Positions 1,328 to 30,311 are shown, counted from the first letter of the stretch. The stretch: DNA of 64,000 nt from an uncultured Candidatus Saccharibacteria bacterium (GCA_964392315.1 CAYMOT010000002.1:41234-105233); one strand, 5' to 3'. Made by a program: numbers and translations. The notes: generated by a model not told the origin, from the sequence alone.

Positions 1328-2356
1328 ATGAGAACTTCAAGGAAACAACCTACGCAGACAATGCAGGATTCATTTAAAAAAAAACAGAGAACTGCCAGTG
1401 TAAAACGATGGGGTATACGCATCTTTGGCTTTTGCGTATTGGCTATTGCACTCTATGCCGTTTTTAGTATTGCACAGGTTTTTCGCCATATTAGTGCGCC
1501 TATACGAGAGTTTCCTCACTTTGACCAACCCTTAGATACAAGAATAGATATGTCGCGTCAGGTATACATTGGAATCTGGTACGAGGCGGAATCATCACCA
1601 GTGAAGCAGAATGCAGTCGCTGTTTTATCTCCTGACAACGCAACGATAAGTGTGCATGTTTTGCCAAGTGACATCTCTACGCTGAATCCGACGGAACTCA
1701 TGCAGCAGACTTCTCTTCCCTTGGAGCGGTATGTGGTTATATCCCGGCATATGTCAAAAGGTCAGGATATTAAAGAATTTGTGTCTAACGCGGCAGATCA
1801 ATGGTATTCGACATTCGTGGGTATAGGCGGATACCGTGCACTGATGCATGGCATTTCTGAGGTGAAAAATGTGATGTATACGAACCTGTCTCCTCGCGAA
1901 CTATTCGATATTGCACAATTTACGAGGATTGTCTCACAGGAGGATATAACGGTCCATGGGTGGTCGCAGACGTCGGGAGACGCAGAGAAACAGCGGCTTG
2001 CGTATTTTGTAGATCCCACCATACATAAAGAAGGCAAACGAATTTGGGTGAGAAATAATACCCAAATTCCTGGTCTTGCTAATGCTGCGGCACTTCTTCT
2101 TAAAAATATCGGCTTTGAGATCGTTCGTATTGACACATTTGACTGCCCAGCACCCGGTACGAATTATTGTGACAGCACGCGAACGCATATACTAACCGGA
2201 GAAACACACGCAAATTCATATGCCATACGTCGTATGACTGAGGTTTTGGGTGGCGAGATGGAATTTTTACAAATCGAAGACTTAAGTCGTGCAGATAGTA
2301 TTGTCGTAGTAGGAGAAAATCTTGCCTATCTCGTAGAGGAAGTTGAAACTCCTTAG
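1328..2356 (+). CDS. membrane-anchored protein with C-terminal LytR_C-like (cell-envelope-related) domain
   Basis: 342-aa ORF with an N-terminal TM helix. The C-terminal segment GKRIWVRNNTQIPGLANAAALLLKNIGFEIVRIDTFD resembles the LytR C-terminal domain pattern. The central LCP motifs are not clear. Confidence 0.4.
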   Translation: MRTSRKQPTQTMQDSFKKKQRTASVKRWGIRIFGFCVLAIALYAVFSIAQVFRHISAPIREFPHFDQPLDTRIDMSRQVYIGIWYEAESSPVKQNAVAVLSPDNATISVHVLPSDISTLNPTELMQQTSLPLERYVVISRHMSKGQDIKEFVSNAADQWYSTFVGIGGYRALMHGISEVKNVMYTNLSPRELFDIAQFTRIVSQEDITVHGWSQTSGDAEKQRLAYFVDPTIHKEGKRIWVRNNTQIPGLANAAALLLKNIGFEIVRIDTFDCPAPGTNYCDSTRTHILTGETHANSYAIRRMTEVLGGEMEFLQIEDLSRADSIVVVGENLAYLVEEVETP

Positions 2357-2380
2357 ATTCAATGAAGATCTCCCACCTAA

Positions 2381-2410
2381 AGGAAATCCCCGCTTTCGCG
2401 GGGATTTCCT
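2381..2410. terminator. strong hairpin (perfect 13-bp inverted repeat AGGAAATCCCCGC-TTTC-GCGGGGATTTCCT) between convergent/consecutive genes
   Basis: Perfect inverted repeat seen directly. No long U-tract follows, so the terminator role is inferred. Confidence 0.55.
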
Positions 2411-2556
2411 TTAGGTGACCCCTTATATCTTTCGATACAGGGGAAACCATGTTTGTGGAGAGAGACAACTAAGGCAATTATAGACGATGGTTTCGCTATT
2501 TGTCAATGATCTGTCACCACGTTACAATATTTGTAGAAAGGCTGAATTCCTCACCT

Positions 2557-5109
2557 ATGTCGAGTATAACCCTAAACATTATTCTCATTATAAGCACAAT
2601 TGTCGTTATTTCTTTTGCGCTTGCACTCCGTGCCTTAAGAAGACGCCTGCAAGATACGCAAATATCACCGGGTATCAGCGATGGGATGCTCTTAGAAATT
2701 AAGGTGCCGAAGTTTAACGAACAGGGACCTGTTGCGGCAGGAATAATGTTCTCTGCACTCCACGGACTTATCGAAAAGGAAGATGAGCAGTCACATGTCT
2801 CTTTCGAAATCGCCGCGGACAAGACGGGCATTAAGTTTTATACGTATGTGCCTCGTTATTTTGAAAAATTCGTCAAATCTCAAATATATGCGCAGTATCC
2901 CGAGGCAGAGATTTTTGAAGTCGAAGACTATACCCGAACTATCGATGAGGCGAAAGGTGCCATCGCTGCAGCTAATCTTACGCTTTCTAAACCGTATTAC
3001 TTTCCTATAAAGACGTTTCCTGACTTTGAGGTTGACCCATTAGCGGCGATAACGTCGGCAGTTGATGAGCGAGCAGGGGATCAACGGGCATGGTTTCAGG
3101 TTCTGATAAACCCTATTGATGATACCTGGCAAAAGGTAGGGTATGAATACATTGCAGCTGTAAAAAATAGAGAAGATTTTGGCCCAGGAGAAAATGAAAT
3201 AGTAGTTGTCTTACGGGGGATATTTAAAGAGTTCTTTGAAGTATTTATGGACCTGGTGACAAACATTTTTACCGGATCAATAAACGGTGCAACTTCTGAT
3301 GAGAAGAAGAAAGAAGGGGAGAAGCAAAAAGCTCTAACCGCGGGTGAAGAGACTGCGATTGCCTATATAGAGAAAAAAATGTCTCGGCTTGGATTCAAAG
3401 CATCTCTGCGGGTAGTAGGGTATGGTGCGAATCCTGAGGAAGCCTCACGTCAAGTTGGTGCGCTCACTTCCGCGTTGAAGCAGTTTTCCGCAGCAAATCT
3501 CAACAGTTTTGTTACAAACATGCAAGAAGATCCGACTAAGTCTTTGCAAGATTTTAGAGAACGCATACTAGATCCAGGTAATGCAAGCAACCCGTTGATT
3601 TTTGATACCGAGGAGCTTGCCTCCATCTTCCATTTGCCGAATACATCGGTGGCGACCCCAAATATAGCATGGACAAAAGCAAAAAGAATTGAGTATCCAC
3701 TGGAATTACCGGTTGGGATAGAGCCGGTATTGGGGGTTACCTCTTTTAGAGCAGAGGAGATTGAGTTTGGAATAAAAAGAGACGATCGCCGCCGTCACAT
3801 GTACTTGGTAGGAAAAACCGGTACTGGTAAGTCTACGTTGCTCCAACGCATGGCCATTAGTGATATACAGAACGGAGAAGGCATTGCGTTTATTGACCCG
3901 CACGGTGACTCTATCGACCTCATTCTAAACTATATTCCTGATAATCGTGTGGATGACGTAATCCTTTTTGATCCAGCAGACATTTATCATCCCATTGCAA
4001 TGAACATGCTAGAACTTTTTGACCCTGAGCAAAAGAGTCTTGTTGCGAGCGCTTTAATAGAAGTATTCAAGCAGCGATTTGAGTTTAGTTGGGGTCCTCG
4101 TATGGAACACATTTTGCGAAATTGTATCCTGTCTCTTTTGGAAGTGCCTGGAAGTACGCTTCTTGGTATTTCACGCATATTAACTGATCGAACCTACAGA
4201 AGATATATCGTACATTTGTTAGAAGATCCAGTTATGATCGACTTTTGGAACAGTGAATTTCCTCAACTCGAGGAGTCTCGTCAGGGTGCTGAGGCAATCG
4301 CACCTATTCAGAACCGCCTTGGGCAATTCTTATCGAGCCCGACTGTTCGTAATATGGTGAGCAATGCACGTTCGACGGTTCGCCTTGATGAAGTAATGGA
4401 CCAAGGAAAGATTCTTCTAGCAAATCTCTCAAAAGGGAAAATAGGGGATGACAACTCGAATATTTTGGGTACGCTGCTCGTAACTCGACTGCAGTTTGCT
4501 GCGTTATCTCGAGTTAAGATTCCGGAGCAGGACCGAAAAGACTTCTTCCTTTATGTAGATGAGTTTCAAAACTTTGTCACATCATCATTTGCGACGATAT
4601 TGTCTGAGGCACGGAAATATCGGCTTGCACTGATTATCACTCATCAATACCTTGGCCAGCTTGAACAAGCAGGGCTTGCGAACCCGAAAGAAGTGCGGGA
4701 TGCTGTTTTTGGCAACGTAGGAACCATTGCTTCATATACGGTAGGGCAGGAAGATGGTGAAATCCTGTCGAAAGAATTCTCAGAAGTTTTTGACGTGAGT
4801 GACTTTGTGTCTCTTGAGCGCTTCCACTATTACATTAAGCTGATGATTGATCTGACACAAAGCAGACCGTTTAGTGCGAAAGGGTTACCAATCAATACCA
4901 ACTTAAAAACTGATAATGTGCAAAAAGTGATAGAATCATCACGAAAACAGTTTAGCGTGCCACGTGAACTTGTCGAAAAGCGTATTGATATGTGGAATAA
5001 GAAAGTATTTGCGCCGGGAATGGATGACGATAAGGTACACAAGATTAGGGAAGAGATGCGGCTTCGTGCTGATTTGTCACGGGTGCAAAAACTTGAAGAA
5101 CATGTCTAA
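2557..5109 (+). CDS. TraG/TraD/VirD4-like type IV coupling protein (T4CP, DUF87-like AAA ATPase) with N-terminal TM anchor
   Basis: Walker A YLVGKTGTGKST, Walker B FFLYVDEFQNF, and the T4CP-typical downstream RKYRLALIITHQYLGQL. Hydrophobic N-terminus. The ORF begins at 2500; I chose the internal ATG at 2557, just before the TM segment. Confidence 0.6.
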   Translation: MSSITLNIILIISTIVVISFALALRALRRRLQDTQISPGISDGMLLEIKVPKFNEQGPVAAGIMFSALHGLIEKEDEQSHVSFEIAADKTGIKFYTYVPRYFEKFVKSQIYAQYPEAEIFEVEDYTRTIDEAKGAIAAANLTLSKPYYFPIKTFPDFEVDPLAAITSAVDERAGDQRAWFQVLINPIDDTWQKVGYEYIAAVKNREDFGPGENEIVVVLRGIFKEFFEVFMDLVTNIFTGSINGATSDEKKKEGEKQKALTAGEETAIAYIEKKMSRLGFKASLRVVGYGANPEEASRQVGALTSALKQFSAANLNSFVTNMQEDPTKSLQDFRERILDPGNASNPLIFDTEELASIFHLPNTSVATPNIAWTKAKRIEYPLELPVGIEPVLGVTSFRAEEIEFGIKRDDRRRHMYLVGKTGTGKSTLLQRMAISDIQNGEGIAFIDPHGDSIDLILNYIPDNRVDDVILFDPADIYHPIAMNMLELFDPEQKSLVASALIEVFKQRFEFSWGPRMEHILRNCILSLLEVPGSTLLGISRILTDRTYRRYIVHLLEDPVMIDFWNSEFPQLEESRQGAEAIAPIQNRLGQFLSSPTVRNMVSNARSTVRLDEVMDQGKILLANLSKGKIGDDNSNILGTLLVTRLQFAALSRVKIPEQDRKDFFLYVDEFQNFVTSSFATILSEARKYRLALIITHQYLGQLEQAGLANPKEVRDAVFGNVGTIASYTVGQEDGEILSKEFSEVFDVSDFVSLERFHYYIKLMIDLTQSRPFSAKGLPINTNLKTDNVQKVIESSRKQFSVPRELVEKRIDMWNKKVFAPGMDDDKVHKIREEMRLRADLSRVQKLEEHV

Positions 5110-6007
5110 CGAAGAACTACAAAAACTCCAACAAACTTTGTCGCGTTTGCAAGATGAGGTAACACAGGCGCAACAACAGTTGAATACGCTTCTTGCTGTC
5201 GGTGATGACACCCAGCAACCAGCCGAGCCTGCAGAAACTGCCGTAGAGGCCCAGCCTGCTCCGGTTATCGAAGTACTTCCCGAAGAGGAGCGCATACCAA
5301 TCGTAGGTAGAACAGGTATGTTTGATGGGGTGTTTATGATCACGGATGATCAAAAAAAGTTTCAAGTTTCGCCAAACTATATTAGTAAGTCACAACTTGT
5401 AGTGGGGGATAGACTTGAAATTATTGACGTTGATGAAACAGGTTCCAAATATTCATTCAAACAAACAAAAAAGATACAACGTAAAGAGCTGCAGGGGATC
5501 TTGACGAAGAAAGATAATCAGTGGGCTGTGCATACAGACGCGGGAGTGTTCTTTGTGGTAGCGGCTGCGGTGCGTTTTAATAAAGCTGATGTAGGGGATA
5601 CCATAGCGATCGATATTCCAGCAGAGGATGTCGGGGTGCCGGTCGAATGGGCAGCGTTCAAGAAGATACAAAAACAAGGATTACGCGAAACCTATGAACC
5701 AAAGCCGAAGCCATATATGCAGCAAAAAGAGCAAAACGATCAAGCTCCCGGTGAAGAGCAGGAAGTCCCACACGAACAAAAAGATACTGCCGCTGGAACA
5801 GAAATAGTTAAGTCGCGTTTAACCCAACCACAAATCCCAGCTCCAGAGGTTCAACAGCCAGTACCGTCTCAAGACGACACCTTGCCGCAAAAGAAAAGTA
5901 CTGATATGGAGGCTTTGGCAGGTGAGGTCACCGTTGATACCGATAATAGTAAGCAACAGTCAGGGGAGATATCATTACAAGAAGAAGACTTGTGGGAATT
6001 AAGATAA
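5102..6007 (+). CDS. hypothetical coiled-coil protein with Q/E/P-rich acidic C-terminus
   Basis: Start MSNEELQKLQQTLSRLQDEV overlaps the upstream stop (ATGTCTAA), suggesting translational coupling to the T4CP gene. No family recognised. Confidence 0.5.
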   Translation: MSNEELQKLQQTLSRLQDEVTQAQQQLNTLLAVGDDTQQPAEPAETAVEAQPAPVIEVLPEEERIPIVGRTGMFDGVFMITDDQKKFQVSPNYISKSQLVVGDRLEIIDVDETGSKYSFKQTKKIQRKELQGILTKKDNQWAVHTDAGVFFVVAAAVRFNKADVGDTIAIDIPAEDVGVPVEWAAFKKIQKQGLRETYEPKPKPYMQQKEQNDQAPGEEQEVPHEQKDTAAGTEIVKSRLTQPQIPAPEVQQPVPSQDDTLPQKKSTDMEALAGEVTVDTDNSKQQSGEISLQEEDLWELR

Positions 6008-6029
6008 AGGTAGATCTGTATTAAATCAG

Positions 6030-6842
6030 ATGTCACGTCGTAGTCAATTCTTCCTCAGTTCTATTTTGATCATCTTGTGTTTTCCCGTAATAGGGCAGGT
6101 AGTTGGACGTCTTGGGGATATGCCTGTTGCGCTCAGTATTGGTATCTGGGCAGTAGCGAGTCTTGTATTATTTCTATATGTACTCGAGAAAAAGTATACA
6201 TTTCCTGAGCAACTCATTTTTGCCATTATTCCGTTTTTATGCGTCATGCTGGTTGCTACGCTTGGGCTCCAATTTAACATGTTCGCGGTATATCCCATTT
6301 CAGCACTGTGGGTTCTGTATTATGCAATAAGTGTAATCAGTATGTATTTTTTGTTTCTCGCACTCAATATTGTCAATGCTGCGACTGTGCGGACTGTTCC
6401 ATTGTTAAAGGCAGCCCAGACATCAATCTTGGCTATCAGTCTTCTTCTTGCGGTCGCATGGGCATTGTATGTGCAGTATGTGTTGCGTTCGCCAATCATC
6501 GCTGCATGGAGCTGGTTTATTTTTTCATACCTTCTTAGCTTAGCAGTCATTTATTTGGGACAAATTGAGGTAGTACGTGAGTTTACCGCAGTGGTAAAAG
6601 TCCCTCTGATAGAGTCGGGGATAATAGCACTTCTACAAGCATATACCGTTTTTATTACCGCAAGTTGGCAAATGAGCGTATCGATTCGTGTCATATATTG
6701 GGTGTCGTCCCTCGCCACATTCACGATGATTGTACGGGCAAGAAGGCAACGAAGTTTAACACGTAAGTTTGTGCGGGATTTTATGTTGCTACAATGGATT
6801 ATTTTTGCCGCGGTGCTTATTATTGGCCTGCGTGCCATATAA
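6030..6842 (+). CDS. hypothetical polytopic membrane protein (about 8 TM helices)
   Basis: 270-aa ORF that is almost entirely hydrophobic helices. It sits immediately downstream of the T4CP/coiled-coil pair. Confidence 0.5.
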   Translation: MSRRSQFFLSSILIILCFPVIGQVVGRLGDMPVALSIGIWAVASLVLFLYVLEKKYTFPEQLIFAIIPFLCVMLVATLGLQFNMFAVYPISALWVLYYAISVISMYFLFLALNIVNAATVRTVPLLKAAQTSILAISLLLAVAWALYVQYVLRSPIIAAWSWFIFSYLLSLAVIYLGQIEVVREFTAVVKVPLIESGIIALLQAYTVFITASWQMSVSIRVIYWVSSLATFTMIVRARRQRSLTRKFVRDFMLLQWIIFAAVLIIGLRAI

Positions 6843-7457
6843 AGAGCAGGGAAGAGGGGAGAAGGACCCTATAAAACTCGGATAGTGTATAGCGGTGTAT
6901 ATTGAAAAGTAAGCATAAGTTATAAAACTATAGGTTATTAATAATTATAGGGTAATTGTCGTCATGTGGATAACTCAACTGCTAATAGGGGGTTAGTGGA
7001 GACGTTCTGAGAGGGGGTCCTTCCCTCGGTCCGAGAGGGGCTTTTTAGGCCGTTTTATACCAATAAAATGGAGCACTACACGAAATATTACAAAAAATAA
7101 AAACCTATTATTCCCGACTTGTGGGTGCCTGGCAAAAATTCATTGAAAAGCGGGAAATCGACATATAACGTCGCTAATCATACAATTCACGACGTTGTGA
7201 ACATTGCTTTTCTTCTACTCCCCCTCGCACGTGTCAACGAATAAATATGTATATATCCAAATAAACTAATAAGCTTATTAGTTTTTATTCCTCATTTGTG
7301 TATTGGTTTATTATAAATTTGAAATTTGTCATTTTTCCCCTCTCCCCCTCCCCTACCTCAAATAATAAACAAATCCGCCAGCTGGCGGAACAAATAAACT
7401 AATAAGCAAATTTATAAGAACATTTGCTTATTTGTAGTATTTGCTTATTATCTATAT

Positions 7458-8453
7458 ATGGCTCAAGGTCTGTCAGAGGCGTTCATTGACTTCATCGAAT
7501 ATTGTGAACTTGAGAGAGGTTTATCCCATCGTACCGCGGAAAAGTACCACTATCGTTTAATGCGGTTTTTGGATTGGCTTATGCAGGTGAATGGGATACA
7601 AACCCCGTCAATAAAGGATATTACGGAAGAAACAATTAAGGAATTCCGGCTGTATTTACATAGATTCGAAAGCGAACAAACCAAAAAGCAGTTAGCAGCA
7701 TCTACACAGCAACATTATCTGGTAGCACTTCGGGCATTTCTTAAATATCTCAAACGCAAGAAAGGCTTTGACCGTTTGTCTGCTGAGGATATTTTGCTGC
7801 CCAAGGCGCAGGGCAAGACGGTCACGTTTCTCAATGTTGAGCACCTTCAAAGCTTGTTTGCACAACCTGATACGCATGAATTGGCAGGAATGCGAGATCG
7901 CGCGATGCTTGAATTATTATTCAGCACCGGGTTGCGTGTCCAAGAATTGATTAATTTAAATAAAGAAGATATTCCTGAAAAAAGCTCCCAATTCACGGTT
8001 TTAGGCAAAGGTAACCGTTACCGTGTGGTATTTTTGAGTGACGTTGCACGCGATTGGGTGCAATTATACCTTTCACGCCGTATAGATGCATGGCTGCCTC
8101 TTTTTGTTAATACTCATGGTCTAAACCCGACGCGTTCTAAGGGGTCTAAAACCGACGAAAATAAATCAGACGTCCTAGATGACCCGGATGGTGAGAGATT
8201 TCGACTTACGGTTCGTTCTGTACAACGCATTATAAAAAAATATGCAAAAATGGCAGGGTTGAGTCAGGAAGTGACGCCGCATGTAATGCGTCATAGTTTT
8301 GCTACCGATTTGTTAACGCGTGGTGCGGATCTTCGATCTGTGCAGGAGCTTCTGGGGCATAAAAATGTCGCGACCACCCAAATCTACACGCATGTTACCA
8401 ATACACGGCTGCAGGAGGTACACAAAAAGTTTCATAGTACAATAGAGGAATAA
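7458..8453 (+). CDS. xerC: tyrosine site-specific recombinase, XerC/XerD family
   Basis: N-terminal SAM-like domain plus a catalytic domain with RVQEL, HVMRHSFATDLL and GHKNVATTQIYTHV (catalytic Tyr). Contains an atypical ~45-aa insertion (NTHGLNPTRSKGSKTDENKSDVLDDPDGERFRL). Confidence 0.8.
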   Translation: MAQGLSEAFIDFIEYCELERGLSHRTAEKYHYRLMRFLDWLMQVNGIQTPSIKDITEETIKEFRLYLHRFESEQTKKQLAASTQQHYLVALRAFLKYLKRKKGFDRLSAEDILLPKAQGKTVTFLNVEHLQSLFAQPDTHELAGMRDRAMLELLFSTGLRVQELINLNKEDIPEKSSQFTVLGKGNRYRVVFLSDVARDWVQLYLSRRIDAWLPLFVNTHGLNPTRSKGSKTDENKSDVLDDPDGERFRLTVRSVQRIIKKYAKMAGLSQEVTPHVMRHSFATDLLTRGADLRSVQELLGHKNVATTQIYTHVTNTRLQEVHKKFHSTIEE

Positions 8454-8467: not shown

Positions 8468-10795
8468 ATGAACTTTGTAACGAAGCTCGTACGCTATCCC
8501 ATTTGGTTTTATAAAGATGGGTTCCAGTTTTGGATCCGATTTTTTCCCAGGACAATAACGCTGATTGCGGACATGATGGGTATAAAACCTATTTTTAAGC
8601 ATTTTCTGTCGCCTTTCCGCAAAGATACATCACCCGTTGGGTATGGCATTGGAATTTTTATACGGCTTGTGTACGGTGGAGCGGGTATTATTGCCGTTGT
8701 TGTGGCCTTTTTTGGACTTATTGGTGCAATGTTGTTTTATTTCTCCATTCCACTCTTTGGGTTTTTGTTGATCATATCGATATCTGATTACACCTGGCCG
8801 AATATCTTAGGGGTGGTGATTTTGATAGCACCACTCGTGTTCTATATCTTTTTTGTAGCGTTAAGAAATCCCAGACTTACCAAAGACGGTTATCGAGTAG
8901 ACTGGGAGCGGGATGTGATGAAGCGGCTGCAGCTCAATCCTGAGGGTGCAATTGCCGCAAAAGAGCATGGTGATTTTGAGCAATTTTTAAAAGAGCGCGG
9001 ATTAACATTAGTTGATTATGAAATTGTTCGGCAGTGGGTTGCACATCAACGCTGGCTTCGTGAAAACTGGAAATACTGGCAGGATGGGCATTATAAGCGG
9101 TTTGTGGGTACAAACCTTGGGTGGGTTTCTGGGTTTATGCGTGAAGCGAAGTATTTTACAAAAAATTTGACGCAGGATCTTCCCCGCCGAAAAGTATACG
9201 AATGGCAAGGTTTGGATCAAATAATCGAGCGCATTTTGGCTGTTCTGGTGCGGGATACGCACAACAACGTGCTTCTGGTTGGTGATTCTGGGGTAGGGAA
9301 GACCTCGGTGGTATACCAAATCGCAAAAGTCATGAATGAGCGTGGTGGTTATCAAGTGATTGACCTAAATATCGCAGGTATGCTTGCGGGCAGTGGGCAT
9401 GAGGGTGAGTTTGAACGACGATTTATAAAAGCGATGCAGGAATTTCGCAATGCCGAGATTATTTTAGTAATTGAAGACATAGAAAGGCTGGTTTCTGGTG
9501 GAGTTGCACAATATTTTTACCCAGTTTTGGACGAGGCGGACTTCCCTATTATTGCTACAACAACTCCTAAAAGTTTGCGGGACGTGCTTGACCGTGAAAC
9601 GAAATTTTTAAATGCGTTTGAGAAAATTCCTGTAGAGGAACCAGATATTCCTGATGTCCTTTTTATATTGCAGGAGAAAGTCAAGGAATTTGAACGACGG
9701 TACGGTGTCTTTATCACGCATCAAGCACTCAAAGCGACCGTAGAAATCGCGGACAGATATATTGTTGATAAAGCATTCCCTTCTAAAGCCATTGATTTGC
9801 TCGATGAGGCGTGTGCATCAGTGGCAAACGGCAGATTTGAATCAGATAAGCAAAAAACAATTCAGGCAACACACATTGAACAAATGGTGAGCGAGATGAC
9901 CGGTGTCTCATTGGGTGAGGTGACCGAAAATGAGCAAGATAAGCTATTACAACTTGAGCAACTGTTGCATGGATTTATTATTGGCCAGGATGATGCAGTA
10001 CAGGAAATTGCTGCCGCGATGCGGCGTGCGCGTTCTGGACTCAAGTCCGACGAGCGCCCGATCGGGTCTTTCTTGTTTGTCGGTCCGACTGGTGTAGGTA
10101 AGACGCTTACTGCAAAGGTATTTGCTCAGGTATATTTTGGAGATCGCGAGAAAATGGTGCGGTTTGATATGAGTGAGTACTCAGAATTTGGGATGACGGA
10201 ACGATTTTTAGATCGAATTAGCGATCAAGTGCGTTCTACTCCTTTTACGGTACTACTTCTTGATGAGTTTGAAAAAGCGGACCAAAAGATTCATAACCTC
10301 TTTTTGCAGATATTGGAAGATGGCCGTGCTACTGACACACAAGGCAATGTCGTTGATTTCAAAAACACCGTTATTATCGCAACAAGCAATGCTCAAAATG
10401 TTGAGCAAGCTTTTAGTCCAGAATTGCGCAATCGCTTCGATGGGATCGTGACATATAAGCCGCTTAATCCCGATCAGATACTTGAGGTTGTCCGGCTTGA
10501 ATTAGGAGAATTGGGTAATAAGCTGTACGAGAAGGAAATTTCGGTTACCTTCTCCCCTACCCTCATTCAGGCGGTAGCGCAACTTGGATACGACCCCAAA
10601 ATGGGCGGACGACCTATACGCAGAGCTATTCAAGATAATATAGAGAATCCTCTTGCAGATGCACTGATCAAAGAAGACATTCACGCAGGTGATTCAATTT
10701 ATCTGGATTGGGAAAATGACCACCTGGTGATAAAAAATGAGGTTCCCGTCTCCCCTGCCCCTGACCAGCCAGCGGAGGGTGAGGTGCAGGTATAA
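8468..10795 (+). CDS. Clp/Hsp100-family double AAA+ ATPase (ClpB/ClpC-like) with an N-terminal multi-TM domain in place of the Clp N domain
   Basis: D1 Walker A LLVGDSGVGKTS. The D2 signature GQDDAVQEIAAAMRRARSGLKSDERPIGSFLFVGPTGVGKT...LLLDEFEKA...VIIATSN matches ClpB/ClpC D2. The first ~130 aa form 3-4 hydrophobic helices. Confidence 0.75.
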   Translation: MNFVTKLVRYPIWFYKDGFQFWIRFFPRTITLIADMMGIKPIFKHFLSPFRKDTSPVGYGIGIFIRLVYGGAGIIAVVVAFFGLIGAMLFYFSIPLFGFLLIISISDYTWPNILGVVILIAPLVFYIFFVALRNPRLTKDGYRVDWERDVMKRLQLNPEGAIAAKEHGDFEQFLKERGLTLVDYEIVRQWVAHQRWLRENWKYWQDGHYKRFVGTNLGWVSGFMREAKYFTKNLTQDLPRRKVYEWQGLDQIIERILAVLVRDTHNNVLLVGDSGVGKTSVVYQIAKVMNERGGYQVIDLNIAGMLAGSGHEGEFERRFIKAMQEFRNAEIILVIEDIERLVSGGVAQYFYPVLDEADFPIIATTTPKSLRDVLDRETKFLNAFEKIPVEEPDIPDVLFILQEKVKEFERRYGVFITHQALKATVEIADRYIVDKAFPSKAIDLLDEACASVANGRFESDKQKTIQATHIEQMVSEMTGVSLGEVTENEQDKLLQLEQLLHGFIIGQDDAVQEIAAAMRRARSGLKSDERPIGSFLFVGPTGVGKTLTAKVFAQVYFGDREKMVRFDMSEYSEFGMTERFLDRISDQVRSTPFTVLLLDEFEKADQKIHNLFLQILEDGRATDTQGNVVDFKNTVIIATSNAQNVEQAFSPELRNRFDGIVTYKPLNPDQILEVVRLELGELGNKLYEKEISVTFSPTLIQAVAQLGYDPKMGGRPIRRAIQDNIENPLADALIKEDIHAGDSIYLDWENDHLVIKNEVPVSPAPDQPAEGEVQV

Positions 10796-17090: not shown

Positions 17091-18809
17091 ATGGCTGAAC
17101 GAACTGATCTTGTAGATATACTGCTCCAAAATAACGTTATAAGTGAAGACCAGGCGTCGCAGGTACGGCTTGAACATATCAATACCGGCAAGACGCTCAA
17201 AGAAATTGTCCTCGAACGTAAACTTGCTGATACAAAGCAAATCGTGCAAGCCGAGGCACGAATTCTTAATGTCGAATATATTGACCTCGCCCAGAACGCG
17301 ATTTCTCCTGAAATTCTTACCAAAATTCCCGAGTCTGTAGCGCGCCACTATACGCTTATACCGGTTGAGATGCGCGATGGAAAGCTCGCAGTCGCGATGA
17401 AAGACCCGATGGATCTACAGATTATAGAATTCTTGGAGACAAAGACTGGGGATGAAATTCATCCCATGATGGCGGATGAAGATAGCATCAATAATGCCAT
17501 CTCAGAAATGTACTCGGTGGGTATTGAGCGGGAAGTGCGGGCTGCCCTAAAAGAAAGCGAAAAGGATGCAGCACGTGTCACCCAAAATATTGAGACGGTT
17601 GACGATCTGCGAAAAGCGGTAGAAAGCGCTCCAGTCGCGCGGATTGTCTCCACAATTTTTGAATATGCAATCAAGGTCGGTGCATCGGACGTACATATTG
17701 AACCGGGACCAAGCCACACCCGTATCAGGTATCGAATAGATGGCATTCTGCGTGAGCGGTTGGCACTCCCCCGCCGAGTACACGATTCGGTTGTTTCCCG
17801 TATTAAGATACTCTCGAGTATGAAAATAGATGAGCGCCGGATTCCGCTAGATGGACGGTTCACTTATTCGTTAGAAGATCAGGTTGTGGATATGCGTGTG
17901 TCTACCCTTCCGACTATGCACGGCGAAAAAGTGGTCGCACGACTACTCCGAAAATCAACGAAAGTTCCTACATTAGAAGAACTTGGGCTTCGCGGTCTCG
18001 CGCTCAAACAGTTCAAAGAGGTCATACGTAAGCCAAATGGTATCGTATTAGTCACTGGTCCTACCGGGAGTGGAAAAACTACCACACTTCGTACTGCTGT
18101 AAGTATGGTTAATTCTACCGACGTCAATATTGTGACTTTAGAAGACCCGGTTGAGTATGAAATTCCAGGAATAAATCAAGTACAAACAAATGAGCAAGCT
18201 GGTCTCACTTTTGCTTCTGGACTTCGAAGTTTCTTGCGACAGGACCCAGATATTATTTTGGTCGGTGAAATACGTGATAGCGAAACGATGCAGCTTGCGA
18301 TTCAGGCGTCCCTTACGGGGCATTTAGTCTTCTCTACCCTACACACCAATTCGGCTTCAGGGACGTTGCCTCGATTGATGGATATGGGAGCTGAACCATT
18401 TCTTCTCGCGTCTACGATGGAGCTTGTTCTTGCACAACGTCTTGTGCGTATTCTCTGCCCGGATTGTAGAAAAGAACATAAAGCAACCCCCGAAGAATTA
18501 GAGAAAATTCGGGAGATGCTCTCTGATTTAGCAGATAAATACGCTCCTGCGGAAAAGGAAATTTCCATATATCAGGCACAAGGATGTTCTAAATGTAACG
18601 ATACCGGATACATTGGTCGAATGGGCGTCTTTGAAGTATTGGTGGTCTCAGAGAAGATTGGAAGATTAATTTTAGAGCGCGAAACTGCGGATACTATTGA
18701 AAAGGCGGCTATAGAATCTGGTATGATAAGAATGTTGCAAGATGGTATATTAAAAGTGTTGGACGGGACCACTACGTTAGCTGAGATATTGAGAGTAGCG
18801 AAAGAGTAA
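17091..18809 (+). CDS. pilB: type IV pilus assembly ATPase PilB (GspE family)
   Basis: N-terminal GSPII domain, Walker A LVTGPTGSGKTTT, the tetracysteine motif CPDC...CSKC, 572 aa. Confidence 0.9.
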   Translation: MAERTDLVDILLQNNVISEDQASQVRLEHINTGKTLKEIVLERKLADTKQIVQAEARILNVEYIDLAQNAISPEILTKIPESVARHYTLIPVEMRDGKLAVAMKDPMDLQIIEFLETKTGDEIHPMMADEDSINNAISEMYSVGIEREVRAALKESEKDAARVTQNIETVDDLRKAVESAPVARIVSTIFEYAIKVGASDVHIEPGPSHTRIRYRIDGILRERLALPRRVHDSVVSRIKILSSMKIDERRIPLDGRFTYSLEDQVVDMRVSTLPTMHGEKVVARLLRKSTKVPTLEELGLRGLALKQFKEVIRKPNGIVLVTGPTGSGKTTTLRTAVSMVNSTDVNIVTLEDPVEYEIPGINQVQTNEQAGLTFASGLRSFLRQDPDIILVGEIRDSETMQLAIQASLTGHLVFSTLHTNSASGTLPRLMDMGAEPFLLASTMELVLAQRLVRILCPDCRKEHKATPEELEKIREMLSDLADKYAPAEKEISIYQAQGCSKCNDTGYIGRMGVFEVLVVSEKIGRLILERETADTIEKAAIESGMIRMLQDGILKVLDGTTTLAEILRVAKE

Positions 18810-18829
18810 CTGTTTTCGCTGTACTGCCC

Positions 18830-19885
18830 ATGACTATACAAACACTTCTTGAAGAGGTTGTAAAAAGAGACGCATCAGATTTGCACTTAAGTGTTGGTGC
18901 ATTGCCGACACTTCGAATTGATGGCACGCTCGTGTTCATAGAAGGTACGCACCCCCTTGCAAAAGAGGAGGTCGAAGAATTGGTTCTCACCGTGCTTACC
19001 GACGAACAGCGTGAATTGCTTTTTGCAAACAAAGAAGTTGACCTCTCGTTTGCGCTTGGTGAAATTGCCCGATTTCGTGTAAATGTCTATCACCAGAAAG
19101 GATATCTTGGTGCAGCGTTCCGTCATATTCCCCAAAAAATACGTTCAGTAGAAGAGCTAAATTTACCCGGTATTATTTCCAATTTCACCAAACTGCCACA
19201 AGGGTTTGTCTTGGTAACAGGACCAACAGGCCATGGAAAGTCAACGAGCCTTGCCGCGCTTATCGACAAGATCAACCAAGAACAATCAAAACATATCGTG
19301 ACTATAGAAGATCCAATAGAGTATGTATTTCCCCATAGGCAAAGCTTGATCACCCAACGTGAAATGCACACAGATACCCATTCATGGAAGGTTGCACTGC
19401 GTAGTGTATTGCGTGAAGACCCTGATGTGGTGATGGTTGGAGAAATGCGTGACTACGAAACAACCGAAGCCGCATTACTTGTGGCCGAAACTGGGCACTT
19501 AGTCTTCTCTACCCTACACACAAATTCTGCCGCACAAACTATTAACCGTATTATTGACCAATTTCCTGAGCATCAGCAACAACAAGTTCGTACTCAATTA
19601 TCTTCTGTGCTCGTTGCCGTAATATCGCAACGTCTTATCCCGGCAATTGGTGGTGGACGCTACCCGGCCACAGAAATTCTTGTAGCGACACCTGCGATTA
19701 AAAACATGATTCGTGAGAACAAAGTACATCAGATTGATAACCTTATTCTAACCAGCGAAGAAGCAGGAATGATCAGCTTAGAAGCGTCGCTTGCGAGCCT
19801 CGTACGAGCGGGTAAGATTAATATGGAGCAAGCACGTGAGCATACTTTACGGCCGGAAGTACTCAAGAGGATGCTTAATAAGTAA
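18830..19885 (+). CDS. pilT: type IV pilus retraction ATPase PilT
   Basis: LVTGPTGHGKSTSLAALID Walker A, GEMRD and AETGHLVFSTLHT motifs, 351 aa. Confidence 0.9.
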   Translation: MTIQTLLEEVVKRDASDLHLSVGALPTLRIDGTLVFIEGTHPLAKEEVEELVLTVLTDEQRELLFANKEVDLSFALGEIARFRVNVYHQKGYLGAAFRHIPQKIRSVEELNLPGIISNFTKLPQGFVLVTGPTGHGKSTSLAALIDKINQEQSKHIVTIEDPIEYVFPHRQSLITQREMHTDTHSWKVALRSVLREDPDVVMVGEMRDYETTEAALLVAETGHLVFSTLHTNSAAQTINRIIDQFPEHQQQQVRTQLSSVLVAVISQRLIPAIGGGRYPATEILVATPAIKNMIRENKVHQIDNLILTSEEAGMISLEASLASLVRAGKINMEQAREHTLRPEVLKRMLNK

Positions 19886-19974
19886 TTAATAAACAAATAT
19901 GCATATAAACAAATATGCAAATAGGATGACATCTGCTTATTTGTAGAATTTGACTATTTGTTTATTTTCCCTTC

Positions 19975-21180
19975 ATGCAAACATACGTTTACACCGCAGT
20001 TACAAAAGAAGGCGACCGACGAAAAGGTGAACTTGAGGGTATTGACGAACGGCAAGTTGCCGAAATTCTCAGAGATCAAGATCTCATTGTTACGGGTATT
20101 GAACCGAAGCCAGAATATGATTTGCTCAAGCGTCTCAAAAGTGCACGTGGCGTGCCTGGTACGGATTTGGCAATTTTTACCCAGCAACTTGCTACCATGA
20201 TCAATTCGGGGCTTCCGATTACCCAAGGCCTTTCGATTCTGGAAAAACAAACTTCGAATGCAGTACTCAAAGAAGCAATTACCAAAATTTCCCAAGGACT
20301 CGATGCTGGGCAGAACATGCACCATATGTTGGGAGAATACCCGAACATATTCAATCGACTCTATATTTCACTCGTCCGTGCAGGAGAAGCATCCGGTAAG
20401 TTAGGAGAGATTTTGGAGGAAATGGGAGATGTGCTTGAGCGTGAGAATGAGTTTCGGGCACGGGTGAAAGGCGCGATGATTTACCCAATCATTGTGTTGA
20501 TCGTAATGCTTATTGTGATGCTGGTAATGATGATCTTTGTGATCCCCCAGTTGACCGAGCTCTATGAGGATCTCGATGTAGAGTTGCCACTTCCCACGAA
20601 GATATTTATTAGTATGAGTGATTTCTTTGTTGCAAATTGGTATTTGATCCCCATTGTTACGATAGGCGGCATATTAGGATATCGATGGTATTCCAGTACC
20701 TTGCAAGGCAGGTACCTCATTGATGAAATAAAGATGAAGATGCCAGTATTTGGGAAACTGCTTCTTCACGCACAATTGACGTCTTTTGCACGGACACTTT
20801 CTCTTTTGTTAACTGCGGGTATTCCTATGTTAGAAGCGATTGATATTTCAGGGGAGACGCTTACGAATATTCACCTGCGTGAAGCTGCTGCCCAATCAGG
20901 CAAAATGATCGAAAAGGGACGTTCTCTCTCCGAAACGTTTCGATCAAGTGAAAAGTTTCCTCCGTTGGTGGCGGAGATGGTCGCAGTCGGTGAACAAACG
21001 GGTAAGGTAGATGAGGTCTTGGTAAAGATTGCGGGCTATTTTGAAAACCTGGCAACGAAAGCTACAGAGAATCTTTCTGCCGCACTCGAGCCAATTATTA
21101 TTGTTATTCTTGCAATTGGTGTTGGTACGCTAGTCATCAGTTTTATTTTGCCTATCTACTCGTTGACAAGCTCATTTTAG
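19975..21180 (+). CDS. pilC: type IV pilus platform protein PilC (GspF family)
   Basis: Two GspF repeats with 3 TM segments, 401 aa. Adjacent to pilB and pilT. Confidence 0.88.
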   Translation: MQTYVYTAVTKEGDRRKGELEGIDERQVAEILRDQDLIVTGIEPKPEYDLLKRLKSARGVPGTDLAIFTQQLATMINSGLPITQGLSILEKQTSNAVLKEAITKISQGLDAGQNMHHMLGEYPNIFNRLYISLVRAGEASGKLGEILEEMGDVLERENEFRARVKGAMIYPIIVLIVMLIVMLVMMIFVIPQLTELYEDLDVELPLPTKIFISMSDFFVANWYLIPIVTIGGILGYRWYSSTLQGRYLIDEIKMKMPVFGKLLLHAQLTSFARTLSLLLTAGIPMLEAIDISGETLTNIHLREAAAQSGKMIEKGRSLSETFRSSEKFPPLVAEMVAVGEQTGKVDEVLVKIAGYFENLATKATENLSAALEPIIIVILAIGVGTLVISFILPIYSLTSSF

Positions 21181-21225
21181 CGATGTTACGGTTAGATATA
21201 GTAGAAGGGGGGTGAATTCGAGCAT

Positions 21226-21687
21226 ATGAAAAAAGCATTTAACAGAGGTTTTACGCTTATCGAGCTTTTGGTTGTTATCGCAGTATTGGGAATTTTGGCA
21301 GCCGTTGTATTGGTAGCGATTAACCCTCAAGCTCGTATTCAGGACGCCCGGAATTCCGGCGTAAGAGCCGACATTGGACAGATTGCGACTGCACTCGAAG
21401 CTTCCTTTACTGATAATGAAGGTGTATATCCAGCAGCTCTCACCGACCTACAAACTGAAGATCAACTGAAAAACATACCAGTTCCTCCAACAGGACGTAC
21501 CGGTTGTGATGAAACAGCAGCTTACGGATATCTAACCGCAGGAGGAGAAGCTGCAGTATGGGCTGATCTTGAGCCGTGCGATTCCGCAACAGAAACTAAC
21601 TACGTGTACTGGACAATTTGTGGTAAAGCAATGGAATCAAACGTACAGCCAGTAGCAAGTGAAATTACGGATACAAGTAACTGTTAG
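21226..21687 (+). CDS. pilA: type IV major pilin (prepilin with class III signal peptide)
   Basis: MKKAFNRG|FTLIELLVVIAVLGILAAVVLVAI: the canonical G/FTLIE prepilin cleavage and methylation motif. 153 aa with C-terminal cysteines. Confidence 0.85.
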   Translation: MKKAFNRGFTLIELLVVIAVLGILAAVVLVAINPQARIQDARNSGVRADIGQIATALEASFTDNEGVYPAALTDLQTEDQLKNIPVPPTGRTGCDETAAYGYLTAGGEAAVWADLEPCDSATETNYVYWTICGKAMESNVQPVASEITDTSNC

Positions 21688-21730
21688 TCGTTCGCTTTAG
21701 CTGTACAGTACTAGTACTGTAGTTATACAT

Positions 21731-21770
21731 AACAAGCGCGTGGAAACACGCGCTTTGTTATATTTCTACG
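21731..21770 (+). terminator. rho-independent terminator after the pilin gene
   Basis: AACAAGCGCGTG-GAAA-CACGCGCTTTGTT hairpin with a GAAA tetraloop, followed by TATATTTCT. It is preceded by a second perfect palindrome, TACAGTACTAGTACTGTA (21705-21722). Confidence 0.65.
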
Positions 21771-21808
21771 AAATATTCAGAAAGTTGTGGCTTGTTATAA
21801 TGTATGTC

Positions 21809-23821
21809 ATGAATCGTATCGCGGTTTTAATCCGATCGAACTTGCTCGAGTTACTCGTATTCTCGTTATCTCTCCTTCTTTATACTTATACTGCTCCACC
21901 GCACATTTTTTCAGGCGATAGTGCTGAACTCACAACGGCTGCAGCAACAGGAGGGTATGCCCACCCTCCAGGATATCCACTCTATTCACTTCTGGGGTCG
22001 ATCTGGATTAAGGTCTTTGCATTAGGGACGATTGGGTGGCGGATGAATATGTTTTCGGTGATCTGGGCTGCTTTATGTGTGGTGGTTATTTTTAAGCTTG
22101 TGTTTGCACTAACCAAGCATCGTATTGCTGCGGTGATAAGTGCGTGTACCGTGGTTGTAGCGAATTCATATTGGCTCTATGGGATCGTAGCCGAAGTGTT
22201 TTCGTTGCATGCTTTTTTGAATATGCTTCTATTGTATGCGGTTGTGCAGTTTTATTTGACAAAAAAATTGTACTACACCTACGTAGCAGCGATTGCTTTT
22301 TCATTGGAGATCGCACATCAACACCTTGTTATTTTGTCTGTTCCTGGAATCCTCGTGGTACTTCTAACAATGCGCTTTTGGAAGCACATATCAGCTAAGC
22401 ATCTTGTGGCACTTTTTGTTATTAGTGTATCTGGATTACTGTGGTATTTGTATCTTCCCCTATCAAAAGCACTCAGCGGCATATACTACTGGGGTTCCCC
22501 AGATACACTTTCTGGGGTTATCGACCTATTTTTACGCAGACAGTATGGCACATTTGATATTACCCACGGTGGGTCATCTTTAACTTTATTGCAAAGGCTC
22601 GAATATGTTAAAGCATTTCTCATGTTGTATGCTTTTAATTATGGAATACCGGGTTTATTGCTGACTTGTATAGGGATTGTGTACTTTTTGAAAAAGCGGA
22701 CTACCCTTGCAATTTCTTTTTTCCTTATCTTTATCGTGACGAGTATCATATTCCTTGTATATGCAGGTCTTGAGACAGTAAACATATTTCGATTGGGCAT
22801 GGTTGAAAAGTTTAGTGTTTTTCCTATCGCCGTTGGGGGAATTTTTATTGGCTATGGAGTATTGTGGGTGTCCCAGAACAAGTTTATACAGAGATATTCT
22901 GCTCTTTTAAAAAATAGGTCAATACCTTTTGTGATAGCGGGTCTTATGTTTGTATTACCCTTATATTTATTGGTGAATCATTGGGATACACTCAATCTTC
23001 GTAATTATTGGGAAGGGTGGTATTTGGGTGTTGATACCTTGATGTATGTCCCTGACTATTCTTTTGTAGGTGTCTCAGGGGATACGATGTCATTTAATAC
23101 GCGTTACATCAATGAAGTAGAGCGTCCACGTCGAAATATTATAATTACTAACTCCCCTCGTGAACCGGTCATTATACAAACTCGACGGTTGCTTGGTGAC
23201 TTGCAACTAGAACCGTCCGTGCCCATTGAAAATGAGCAATTTATCAATGAAATGATCAAGAAGTATCCTAAGGAGTTATCGTATTTCGTTCGCAGTCAGG
23301 TAACCGTTCCAAGTGGGTATGAGCTTGTTCCGGTTGGAGCATTGAACCAGGTGTTGCTTACAGATACCCTGCCCCCTAGAGAAGAGACGCTTGGGCAGCT
23401 GCGACATTTTCTGAATAATTCGTTTATGTTAAATCAATCGGGACTTGATACTTCTCTTCCTCCTCTAGCAGATAGCATTCGTGATGACTACGGTTTGATT
23501 TTGAACAATATTGGATGGTACTTGATACATGAACGAGAATATGAGGTTGCACGGGAAGTCTTCAAAAAAGGTAGTAGTATTGATCCGGGAAGACTCGAGC
23601 ATACACTTGGGTTTTATGCAATAGAGCGAGAAAAAGGTAATTGTCAAGCTGCTGGTGCTATCCTTGATGCATACGACGCAGACAGTGCTATCAAGCGCTT
23701 CACGATACTTCGTGAAAAAGCGGTTCTTTATCGGGTGTGCTACAAAGATGAGGAGAAGGTAACTGAATTGTTAAAAGAACTGGAATCAATACAATTACCT
23801 AGTGGCGCCTCTGGGACATAG
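21809..23821 (+). CDS. GT-C fold membrane glycosyltransferase (DUF2723 / PMT-like) with C-terminal TPR-like repeats
   Basis: FSGDSAELTTAAATGGYAHPPGYPLYSLLG matches the N-terminal catalytic-loop signature of DUF2723/PMT_2 (ArnT/PMT-like). More than 10 TM helices, then a soluble C-terminal repeat region. The ORF begins at 21740 inside the terminator, so I chose the ATG at 21809. Confidence 0.55.
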   Translation: MNRIAVLIRSNLLELLVFSLSLLLYTYTAPPHIFSGDSAELTTAAATGGYAHPPGYPLYSLLGSIWIKVFALGTIGWRMNMFSVIWAALCVVVIFKLVFALTKHRIAAVISACTVVVANSYWLYGIVAEVFSLHAFLNMLLLYAVVQFYLTKKLYYTYVAAIAFSLEIAHQHLVILSVPGILVVLLTMRFWKHISAKHLVALFVISVSGLLWYLYLPLSKALSGIYYWGSPDTLSGVIDLFLRRQYGTFDITHGGSSLTLLQRLEYVKAFLMLYAFNYGIPGLLLTCIGIVYFLKKRTTLAISFFLIFIVTSIIFLVYAGLETVNIFRLGMVEKFSVFPIAVGGIFIGYGVLWVSQNKFIQRYSALLKNRSIPFVIAGLMFVLPLYLLVNHWDTLNLRNYWEGWYLGVDTLMYVPDYSFVGVSGDTMSFNTRYINEVERPRRNIIITNSPREPVIIQTRRLLGDLQLEPSVPIENEQFINEMIKKYPKELSYFVRSQVTVPSGYELVPVGALNQVLLTDTLPPREETLGQLRHFLNNSFMLNQSGLDTSLPPLADSIRDDYGLILNNIGWYLIHEREYEVAREVFKKGSSIDPGRLEHTLGFYAIEREKGNCQAAGAILDAYDADSAIKRFTILREKAVLYRVCYKDEEKVTELLKELESIQLPSGASGT

Positions 23822-24023
23822 TGCGGTACTTTATAAAAAGGTACTAGAAGCTATTTCAAAACCCAACGATACGCTCGTAGAGATAGCAAAAAATGTTCGT
23901 CATCAAGGCGCACCAACAGATCATGATACGTTTCGGACATCGACGTTGATGCCAGCACATTTTTTGTATCTCACTTGCGTTGGTTGGTCAGGTTTTGGAA
24001 TAGCTTCTAGTATCGAAAACGCT

Positions 24024-24824
24024 ATGTTTATTATTTATTTAACTCTTATTGCACTCCTTGTTGGCTCATTTCTCAACATGCTCATAGATCGGTTACATAC
24101 CAAAGAGCAAATAATTGGCCTGTCACGCTCTCATTGTGATACGTGCGGACATATATTGGGAGTACGTGACCTTGTTCCGATAGTTTCGTGGCTTATGTTA
24201 AGAGGCAAATGTCGGTATTGTGGAGCACCTATTCCGGCACGAAATGCGTTAGTCGAGCTAGTCACTGCTGCCTTGGTTGTGTTGACCTATGTGGAATTAT
24301 TTGAGAGCAACTTATTGAGTATTGAGGAGATACCAGTCTTTGTTTTGGTTACCATCATTCTTTGTGCGCTTCTTGTGTTGCTGGTTTTTGACGTGTATCA
24401 CCAAATTCTCCCAGACAGTGTTATGGTTGTGGCATTACTTGCGACGATAGGGCTCCATGGTTTCTTTTTTGTGGAAAACGGCATCCTATTCGGAAATATC
24501 AGTTTCATGAATAGTATGCTTAGTGCGTTTGGGTCTGCACTCCCCTACTTCATACTTATTCTCATGACCAAAGGTGCCGGAATGGGTGGTGGGGATCTAA
24601 AATTAGCGTTTGTAATGGGGCTGTTGTTAGGGTATCCAAAGATATTTGTCGCACAGTACATTGCCTTTATTTTGGGAGGGATTGTCGCGATTGTCTTACT
24701 TATGGGGGGCAAAAAACGTTTCGGTCAGACAATGGCATTTGGTCCGTTTATGATCATAGGAACATGTTCTGTGTTGTTTTGGGGCGACGAAATTATTAAG
24801 AGATTCGCATATTGGATTCCTTAA
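24024..24824 (+). CDS. pilD: prepilin peptidase PilD (A24 family)
   Basis: LLVGSFLNMLIDRL, then the zinc-binding CDTCGH...CRYCG, GGGDLKL and polytopic TM helices. The ORF extends upstream to 23802; the start may instead be at 23949. Confidence 0.8.
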   Translation: MFIIYLTLIALLVGSFLNMLIDRLHTKEQIIGLSRSHCDTCGHILGVRDLVPIVSWLMLRGKCRYCGAPIPARNALVELVTAALVVLTYVELFESNLLSIEEIPVFVLVTIILCALLVLLVFDVYHQILPDSVMVVALLATIGLHGFFFVENGILFGNISFMNSMLSAFGSALPYFILILMTKGAGMGGGDLKLAFVMGLLLGYPKIFVAQYIAFILGGIVAIVLLMGGKKRFGQTMAFGPFMIIGTCSVLFWGDEIIKRFAYWIP

Positions 24825-24902
24825 CGAAAGGTATTGGTGGGCTTTAAGATGCCAGTAGAACGCTGCTTTTAACACGTCTTGCGTTATGATACGCTGTATC
24901 TA

Positions 24903-25900: not shown

Positions 25901-25903
25901 GGT

Positions 25904-26518: not shown

Positions 26519-26536
26519 AGGGCAGATCAAACTCTT

Positions 26537-27961: not shown

Positions 27962-27987
27962 GCAAAAAAACGTTCTTTTCTCCTGTC

Positions 27988-28016: not shown

Positions 28017-28022
28017 GTATAT

Positions 28023-30296: not shown

Positions 30297-30311
30297 GAAA
30301 GGCAGTTAACC

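Follow-up and report, generated by a model that had tools for sequence, protein, structure and literature searches.

A stretch of 64,000 nucleotides (nt) from an uncultured Candidatus Saccharibacteria bacterium (GCA_964392315.1 CAYMOT010000002.1:41234-105233; the whole stretch is referred to here as the window) encodes, at positions 2,557 to 6,842, three adjacent open reading frames (ORFs) that an earlier note had described as a coupling-protein-like ATPase, a coiled-coil protein, and a polytopic membrane protein. The first two—ORF A (850 amino acids, aa; 2557..5109, plus strand, as is every feature given below in this two-dot form) and ORF B (301 aa; 5102..6007)—are, on the reading to which we give a probability of roughly 0.45, two translationally coupled members of a phylum-wide Patescibacteria system that is inherited vertically and combines a membrane-tethered nucleic-acid motor with an adaptor of the oligonucleotide/oligosaccharide-binding (OB) fold. 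ORF A belongs to the DUF8128 family, whose motor resembles the coupling proteins (T4CPs) of type IV secretion systems (T4SSs); this ORF corresponds to the "orphan T4CP" of Patescibacteria. The clade that holds the window protein probably acts independently of the essential T4SS, in DNA uptake or processing or in chromosome transactions. An independent public gene call gave 850, 301, and 270 aa for ORFs A, B, and C, in agreement with the boundaries drawn earlier. The copy in the window is an ordinary chromosomal one, from a catalogued but uncharacterized family, and our results are mostly clarifying.

ORF A begins with a single transmembrane (TM) helix at aa 6 to 24 (2572..2628; hydropathy, 2.69; helix aa 3 to 32 in the AlphaFold2 model), which accounts for the membrane anchor claimed previously, and the RALRRR sequence that follows this helix suggests, by the positive-inside rule, that the remainder is cytoplasmic. 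Beyond it lie an alpha/beta domain assigned to DUF8128 (PF26449; ~aa 40 to 360, 2674..3636), modeled confidently outside loops, and an ATPase domain (~aa 390 to 780, 3725..4896) with Walker A (GKTGTGKST, aa 419 to 427, 3811-3837), a helical insert, Walker B (FFLYVDE, aa 663 to 669, 4543-4563), and the expected Q...QL-type motif (THQYLGQLEQ, aa 695 to 704, 4639-4668). The key residues of all three motifs were invariant across 39 aligned homologues, and both domains held invariant residues by the dozen, many of them in the DUF8128 domain. An all-helical subdomain (aa 490 to 615), a T4CP-type feature, is inserted in the nucleotide-binding domain. The structures of ORF A and ORF B discussed here are predicted models. 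PF26449 is also annotated on the 100%-identical protein P0001, on a gene call of the same sequence (L086; L numbers denote loci), and on all 120 homologues listed.

Two further observations concern the ATPase ends and boundaries. At five loci (L043, L053, L055, L056, and L077), the protein is encoded by two neighboring genes, divided exactly where DUF8128 meets the motor, with products of ~425 to 436 aa and then ~490 to 700 aa. Many main-clade ATPases (L004 to L083) have a long, low-complexity C-terminal tail that closes with [VIL]x[LIF][RKH] (for example, ELRLR, EIQLR, LLKIR, EIRFH, and GEVEIFRFP); this ending, a motif picked post hoc, occurred in 20 of 76 distinct tails versus 3.3 expected from shuffles. 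The window ATPase lacks the tail, and the C terminus of ORF B (5960-6004) closes with ...SGEISLQEEDLWELR.

Profile searches place ORF A as a predicted P-loop ATPase in the VirD4/VirB4 branch of the FtsK-HerA superfamily. In Pfam it matched TrwB_AAD_bind with 35.3 bits (cutoff, 20.5) and DUF87 with 25.9 bits, and its TraG-D_C score of 18.8 bits fell under the cutoff of 22. Among the 39 homologues, TrwB_AAD_bind matched all (best, 5.5e-14), TraG-D_C matched 35, T4SS-DNA_transf matched 22, and AAA_10 matched 21; the meaningful PDB sequence matches of ORF A were TrwB and DotL only. These results bear out the T4CP-like assignment, and the profiles did not group ORF A with FtsK, the outcome that the earlier note had named as contrary to it. 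The FtsK_SpoIIIE profile made contact with the P loop only in the 39 homologues, and the combination of an FtsK_SpoIIIE motor with a gamma (KOPS-binding) domain and a four-TM N terminus was not found in ORF A, which has no gamma or winged-helix domain. FtsK identity was rejected on the ranking of profiles and folds and on the existence of a separate, essential FtsK in S. epibionticum. The HerA combination of a DUF87 core, a HAS-barrel, and a NurA or Sir2/DUF partner was likewise not found.

NCBIfam TraD/VirD4 equivalogs reached at best 34 bits versus a cutoff of 366, with the Walker A region alone aligning, and NCBIfam CedD gave a weak match. By fold, the top Foldseek match of ORF A was full-length VirB4/TrwK (E value, 7e-15; 924 columns, N-domain included), with a poor rigid-body overlay (template-modeling score, 0.28; root mean square deviation, 18 Å), and no match to CagE_TrbE_VirB or a related VirB4 profile was found in the 39 homologues. 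ORF A appears to stand between the T4CPs and VirB4, with a motor that is T4CP-like by sequence, a two-domain layout that may resemble VirB4, and DUF8128 as its N-terminal 350 residues.

ORF B begins with an ATG at 5102, and its first codons enclose the stop codon of ORF A (TAA, 5107-5109). The resulting 8-nt overlap (ATGTCTAA, read as gaacATGTCTAAc; type ATGNNTAA) is retained in an 80%-identical relative with its sequence changed to ATGCCTAA, so the translational coupling recognized earlier is conserved. The coiled-coil label given to ORF B held up only in part: a predicted N-terminal helix (aa 3 to 33, 5108-5200), followed by a disordered linker, fits it marginally, but the conserved, beta-rich core (aa 66 to 192, 5297-5677) is predicted with high confidence (predicted local distance difference test, >92) to be a tandem OB fold of cold-shock-like type. 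The protein ends in a disordered acidic tail in the model (5684-6004; end, EEDLWELR), and isoelectric points (pI) were 8.1 for the basic core and 4.4 for the tail. No match to ORF B was found in Pfam, NCBIfam, or PDB sequence and profile searches, nor did it match the SSB-type OB-fold profile, and its named homologues were all "hypothetical protein." An exhaustive profile search returned 1,163 cluster representatives (50% identity clusters), 725 of them below 1e-30. The family has no Pfam model, and its tandem OB core is apparently new here.

The B core occurred at 17 of 86 ATPase loci, where it was directly downstream, directly upstream, one gene off, or fused; the search used a core-only hidden Markov model (HMM), which found the same 17 loci as the full-length HMM, and matches up to 1.4 kb upstream were separate ORFs. 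B immediately followed the ATPase in WWE3, Woykebacteria, and L005 and immediately preceded it in L008 and L028, and in L007, L011, L019, L025, and L037 it lay one gene upstream. In L020 (10001-13300), a single ORF of 1,100 aa comprises the ATPase, a Q/P-rich linker, and the B OB core (aa 956 to 1091), without the N-terminal helix of B; no such fusion was found among the 120 best ATPase homologues. The commonest neighbor of B was dnaX: of 73 loci, 28 had it within four genes on the downstream side, and in 17 it was the very next gene. At these B-dnaX loci dnaB often came next and rplJ-rplL often preceded, and five loci had the order ATPase-B-dnaX. The prevalence of dnaX, the frequent presence of dnaB after it, and the five composite loci tie B to DNA, and B is a Patescibacteria-wide OB-fold protein with two recurrent DNA-related contexts. 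A third recurrent context, ftsQ (POTRA), DUF1290, B, and then pilT, was seen at L119, L126, L137, L147, L148, and L149.

More than 5,000 database proteins matched ORF A, and PF26449 was present on all among the matches listed. Named matches came from WWE3, Woykebacteria, CPR3, Saccharimonadia, and other Patescibacteria, the closest from candidate division WWE3. With one genome scanned per species, at least 593 ATPase loci were found, the best 80 of which came from Woyke-, Sacchari-, Berkel-, Dojka-, Gracili-, Peregrini-, Nomura-, and Moranbacteria at ~40 to 46% identity (gene calls at the loci are heuristic, and taxon labels of metagenome-assembled genomes are as deposited). Judging from these comparisons, the DUF8128 ATPase is a slowly evolving, vertically inherited core gene. 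A conserved block, seen in WWE3, Woykebacteria, Dojkabacteria, and some Saccharimonadia, has the order Na+/H+ exchanger (NhaP)-TrkA, gene U, ATPase, ORF B (not in all), a TPR gene, YebC, RuvC, DUF5656, and Xer. At most Saccharibacteria loci, the ATPase is preceded on its 5' side by DprA, TopA, and a sigma70_r4 plus HARE-HTH gene. The Pfam-labeled flanks of the ATPase in L001 to L005 contained no relaxase or T4SS genes.

In several lineages, a second, deeper-branching paralogue stands in tandem with the main ATPase, in the order paralogue, B, sometimes the sigma/HARE gene, and then the main ATPase; such tandems occurred at L007, L008, L011, L017, L019, L025, and L040, with B in between at five of the seven. 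A published table contains a comparable case, in which proteins #83 and #85 of GCA_000505065.1, one gene apart, are both T4CP hits (PMC12102498, Table S3). In a crude neighbor-joining tree without support values, the window protein fell in the main ATPase clade.

The lack of a nearby T4SS is no peculiarity of the window. Quinonero-Coronel et al. (2025, PMC12102498) counted 5,713 T4CP homologues in 2,918 of 3,035 Patescibacteria genomes, of which 148 were near virB4, found VirB4 in 2,417 genomes and relaxases almost absent, and remarked that the T4CP gene "may have been exapted." A T4CP without an adjacent T4SS is already known from that work as the norm for the phylum. In agreement with the earlier note, Pfam scans of the ~46 ORFs in the 64-kb window found no VirB4, VirB6, VirB8, or relaxase.

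Published genetic data from S. epibionticum (Wang et al. 2023, PMC10633639) bear on the relation to the T4SS, which in this organism is encoded by an essential cluster without a recognizable coupling protein. According to the supplementary tables, SEML1_0293 is a protein of 921 aa with T4CP domains from about residue 402 and is non-essential; its gene follows TopA and a sigma/HARE-HTH gene, a synteny shared with most Saccharibacteria loci. On our reading of what the column denotes, its read values dropped across three time points, with 5817 at the first and 1372 at the last, and its neighbors showed no such drop (PMC10633639). Essential genes include the paralogue SEML1_0142, the 139-aa gene that precedes it, and a canonical FtsK with a gamma domain (PMC10633639). 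For the clade of the window protein, independence from the T4SS is somewhat likelier than a classical coupling role because SEML1_0293 is dispensable and the T4SS essential, and it is also favored because the family is more widespread than VirB4 and its neighbors are replication and recombination genes.

We nevertheless consider it possible, if tentative, that ORF A is a genuine patescibacterial T4SS coupling protein encoded away from its secretion system, docking on VirB4/VirB6 and recruiting substrates; B would then be an adaptor or chaperone of the kind that serves DotL or TraD. The T4CP signatures in sequence and fold argue for such a role, as do the missing recognizable coupling protein of patescibacterial T4SS clusters, the frequent location of T4CP genes far from virB4 (PMC12102498), and the essentiality, like that of the T4SS, of SEML1_0142 and its small upstream gene. 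However, the T4SS is essential and SEML1_0293, which shares the synteny of the window clade, is not; more genomes have T4CP homologues than have VirB4 (2,918 versus 2,417); one TM helix plus a 350-aa DUF8128 domain is not the two-helix membrane domain of a T4CP; and the genes that recur as neighbors serve replication and recombination, never a T4SS. We regard as very unlikely that the gene is what is left of a decayed integrative conjugative element, as the earlier note had also proposed, or a defense ATPase of HerA/DptH type. The family shows phylum-wide vertical conservation with 40 to 50% identity across Patescibacteria classes and stable chromosomal synteny; the G+C content of the ATPase gene equals that of its flanks; the neighboring recombinase is XerC/D-like and travels with the DUF5656 gene; and no relaxase, NurA, Sir2, or Dnd genes are nearby.

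It is unlikely, in our estimation, that the pair is a DNA-uptake motor that pulls single-stranded DNA arriving via ComEC inward, in place of ComFA, with B coating the incoming strand. The archaeal Ced system, in which a VirB4/HerA-like ATPase takes part in DNA import, offers a precedent, in line with the weak CedD match of ORF A. The gene dprA lies three to four genes upstream in Saccharibacteria loci, the pilus cluster of the window is 12 kb away, and pilT adjoins B in several loci. SEML1_0293 is dispensable, as is comEC, and the conserved com genes of the candidate phyla radiation named by Wang et al. (PMC10633639) are ComEC, DprA, and ComFC only, with no motor given. Against such a role, neither comEC nor comFC is adjacent, and known T4CPs export rather than import. 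In addition, dprA and topA form an old conserved pair in other bacteria, and their linkage here may be incidental. K02242 we take to be the KEGG number of ComFC. The label "ComFA (K02242)" in PMC12361377 was for this reason not taken as evidence of ComFA. Still less probable is a chromosome-maintenance pump, an FtsK-like helper in dimer resolution, segregation, or replication restart. Its neighbors Xer, RuvC, YebC, RuvX, TopA, and GyrA/B, and the link of B to dnaX-dnaB, would suit such a helper, but S. epibionticum already has a canonical essential FtsK with a gamma domain, ORF A has no gamma or winged-helix domain and matches FtsK only distantly in structure, and adjacency means little in tiny genomes dense in housekeeping genes.

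If the pair is a membrane-tethered motor with an OB adaptor, a mechanism can be outlined. TrwB, VirB4, and HerA families are hexameric. ORF A would similarly assemble as a ring under the membrane, presumably a hexamer; the OB folds of ORF B would bind single-stranded nucleic acid or nucleoprotein; the N-terminal helix of ORF B, its tail, or both may hold it on the motor; and ATP hydrolysis by ORF A would move the substrate at the membrane, in whichever direction. As suggested earlier, the locus may be a "minimal DNA-translocation apparatus."

Several points weigh against the paired-motor interpretation. The reciprocal scan found the ATPase adjoining B in 15 of 80 metagenomic B loci, or in 7 of 30 when at least 2.6 kb was available on both sides, and most Saccharibacteria ATPase loci have no B nearby; A-B pairing is thus lineage-restricted, and the candidate view of ORF B as an obligate ATPase partner was weakened by the same scan. 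The A-B fusion is a single case, L020. Nucleic-acid binding by B is suggested by its predicted fold and its gene context, and OB folds also bind proteins and RNA, with B also adjoining rplJ-rplL. Because a DNA channel cannot be built from one TM helix per subunit, the T4SS, ComEC, or some other protein would have to supply a conduit. That the window gene is orthologous to SEML1_0293 is drawn from synteny and the clade in the crude tree rather than from the S. epibionticum sequence, and the essentiality of SEML1_0142, like that of the T4SS, keeps a T4SS role alive for the family as a whole.

ORF C (6030..6842) starts 22 nt past ORF B and encodes a polytopic membrane protein of 270 aa, with 8 to 9 hydropathy peaks, close to the 8 TM helices noted earlier, and a pI of 10. 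It had no match in NCBIfam or in a direct Pfam scan, being too divergent for the PF18900 model to score, but aligned with a set seeded by Pfam-labeled DUF5656 genes (L004/L005 and relatives) in an iterated HMM search (hhalign, 97.3%; 237 columns). An initial view of ORF C as specific to WWE3 was overturned by this match; the protein is probably a divergent member of DUF5656 whose synteny is conserved but loose, and its identification as such, normally beside an Xer gene, is apparently new here. Outside WWE3, the DUF5656 gene lies 3.5 to 6 kb 3' of the ATPase, directly before an Xer-like gene, which makes the link of C weaker than that between A and B; in WWE3, the intervening genes are gone, and ORF C follows ORF B immediately. 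The proposal of one dedicated three-gene module gives way to a recurrent A-B pair, with ORF C a loosely linked neighbor and not a proven channel, for which the data hint only faintly at a conduit role.

The XerC/XerD-like tyrosine recombinase (7458..8453; Pfam Phage_integrase and SAM_1) matches its NCBIfam models over the full length (XerC, 244 bits; XerD, 242 bits), and an Xer gene is the conserved downstream neighbor of the DUF5656 gene in related lineages (L006 and L009 to L021). Between it and ORF C is a 615-bp AT-rich noncoding gap (6843-7457) with terminator-like hairpins on both strands, and a gap of similar size is retained in L001 and L002. On the 3' side of the recombinase, a ClpB/ClpA-like double AAA+ protein without Clp_N (8468-10795; N-terminal ~220 aa hydrophobic-looking by translation) is likewise retained in L001 and L002.

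Upstream, gene U (1328..2356; 342 aa) encodes a single-pass membrane protein (TM helix, aa 30 to 48) with a weak Pfam LytR_C match of 21.4 bits, slightly under the cutoff. It is the conserved 5' neighbor of the ATPase in WWE3, Woykebacteria, Dojkabacteria, and some Saccharimonadia, with homologues directly upstream in L001 to L006, L009 to L021, and others, and aligned with the family at that position in Dojkabacteria at 98.7% (hhalign). Gene U was rejected as a universal partner, considering that the gene preceding the ATPase in Saccharibacteria encodes an unrelated sigma70_r4/HARE-HTH protein (hhalign probability, 0.1%).

Direct reading of the sequence 3' of gene U revealed a perfect 15-bp hairpin (AAAGGAAATCCCCGC-TTTC-GCGGGGATTTCCTTT; 2380..2413) that resembles a terminator and probably separates gene U from the ATPase operon. 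A consensus scan found a promoter-like TTGTCA-17-TACAAT (2500..2528; 10 of 12 matches, a consensus match only) 29 nt 5' of the ATPase ATG at 2557, and a sequence scan found a terminator-like hairpin with a T-run 3' of ORF C (7022..7040), the likely end of an A-B-C transcript. Pfam content of the ~46 window ORFs included gyrB/gyrA, holB, a type IV pilus cluster, tRNA synthetases, RecG, PBP1, and similar genes. The pilus cluster looks complete (17091-31744), with PilB, a PilT-like ATPase, PilC, four pilin-like genes, a prepilin peptidase, and PilM. At 57000-64000, G+C content rises from ~0.42 to 0.53 to 0.57 and ORFs have no Pfam matches; this segment, which had no Rfam match at an E value of ≤0.01, may be a foreign island or an assembly chimera. 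An Rfam scan of the window returned no match.

Patescibacteria account for a large part of bacterial diversity and live at the expense of other cells, so that how they acquire DNA and nucleotides and what their T4SSs carry are at issue, and nearly every genome has one to three copies of the DUF8128 ATPase. A bolder form of the proposal, which we hold to be unlikely, is that the ATPase and the OB protein constitute a T4SS-independent, Patescibacteria-specific DNA-handling machine, one version of which would supply the ComFA-like motor that is missing, drawing DNA of the host or the environment into cells unable to make nucleotides. If so, ORF B would represent a new family of replisome- or uptake-associated single-strand-binding proteins, which would explain its dnaX-dnaB linkage. 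An OB-fold partner tied to dnaX/dnaB and two S. epibionticum paralogues, one dispensable and one essential, offer handles for direct experiments on binding, transformation, and depletion.

In the literature searched, we found no description of the DUF8128 domain (the term "DUF8128" itself gave no result), the OB-fold partner, the tandem paralogues, or the conserved block, and the dnaX/dnaB linkage and possible VirB4-like layout likewise appear to be undescribed. Compared with TrwB, VirD4, TraD, and DotL, ORF A shares a TrwB-like motor domain with an inserted helical subdomain but has one TM helix instead of two, an extra cytoplasmic DUF8128 domain of ~350 aa, no linked relaxase or T4SS genes, and equivalog scores far under the cutoffs. 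It differs from VirB4/TrwK in having no VirB4 sequence-profile match and no VirB3, VirB6, or VirB8 neighbors, and Patescibacteria have a separate bona fide VirB4. For ORF B, the closest systems are the tandem cold-shock domains of RNase R and RNase II and the OB folds of S17, Rho, and IF1, from which it differs by the lack of a detectable sequence relationship and of a nuclease domain and by the addition of an N-terminal helix and an SSB-like disordered acidic tail. ORF C resembles DUF5656 proteins in size, polytopic topology, and adjacency to an Xer gene, but in WWE3 the gene comes immediately after ORF B. ORF A is also close to the orphan T4CP homologues (PMC12102498; SEML1_0293 and SEML1_0142, PMC10633639), which those papers only counted or annotated. 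They share its family, architecture, length of ~900 aa, location away from virB4, and PF10412, PF12696, and PF01935 matches that start near residue 400, and the TopA, sigma/HARE-HTH, ATPase synteny of SEML1_0293 is that of most Saccharibacteria loci.

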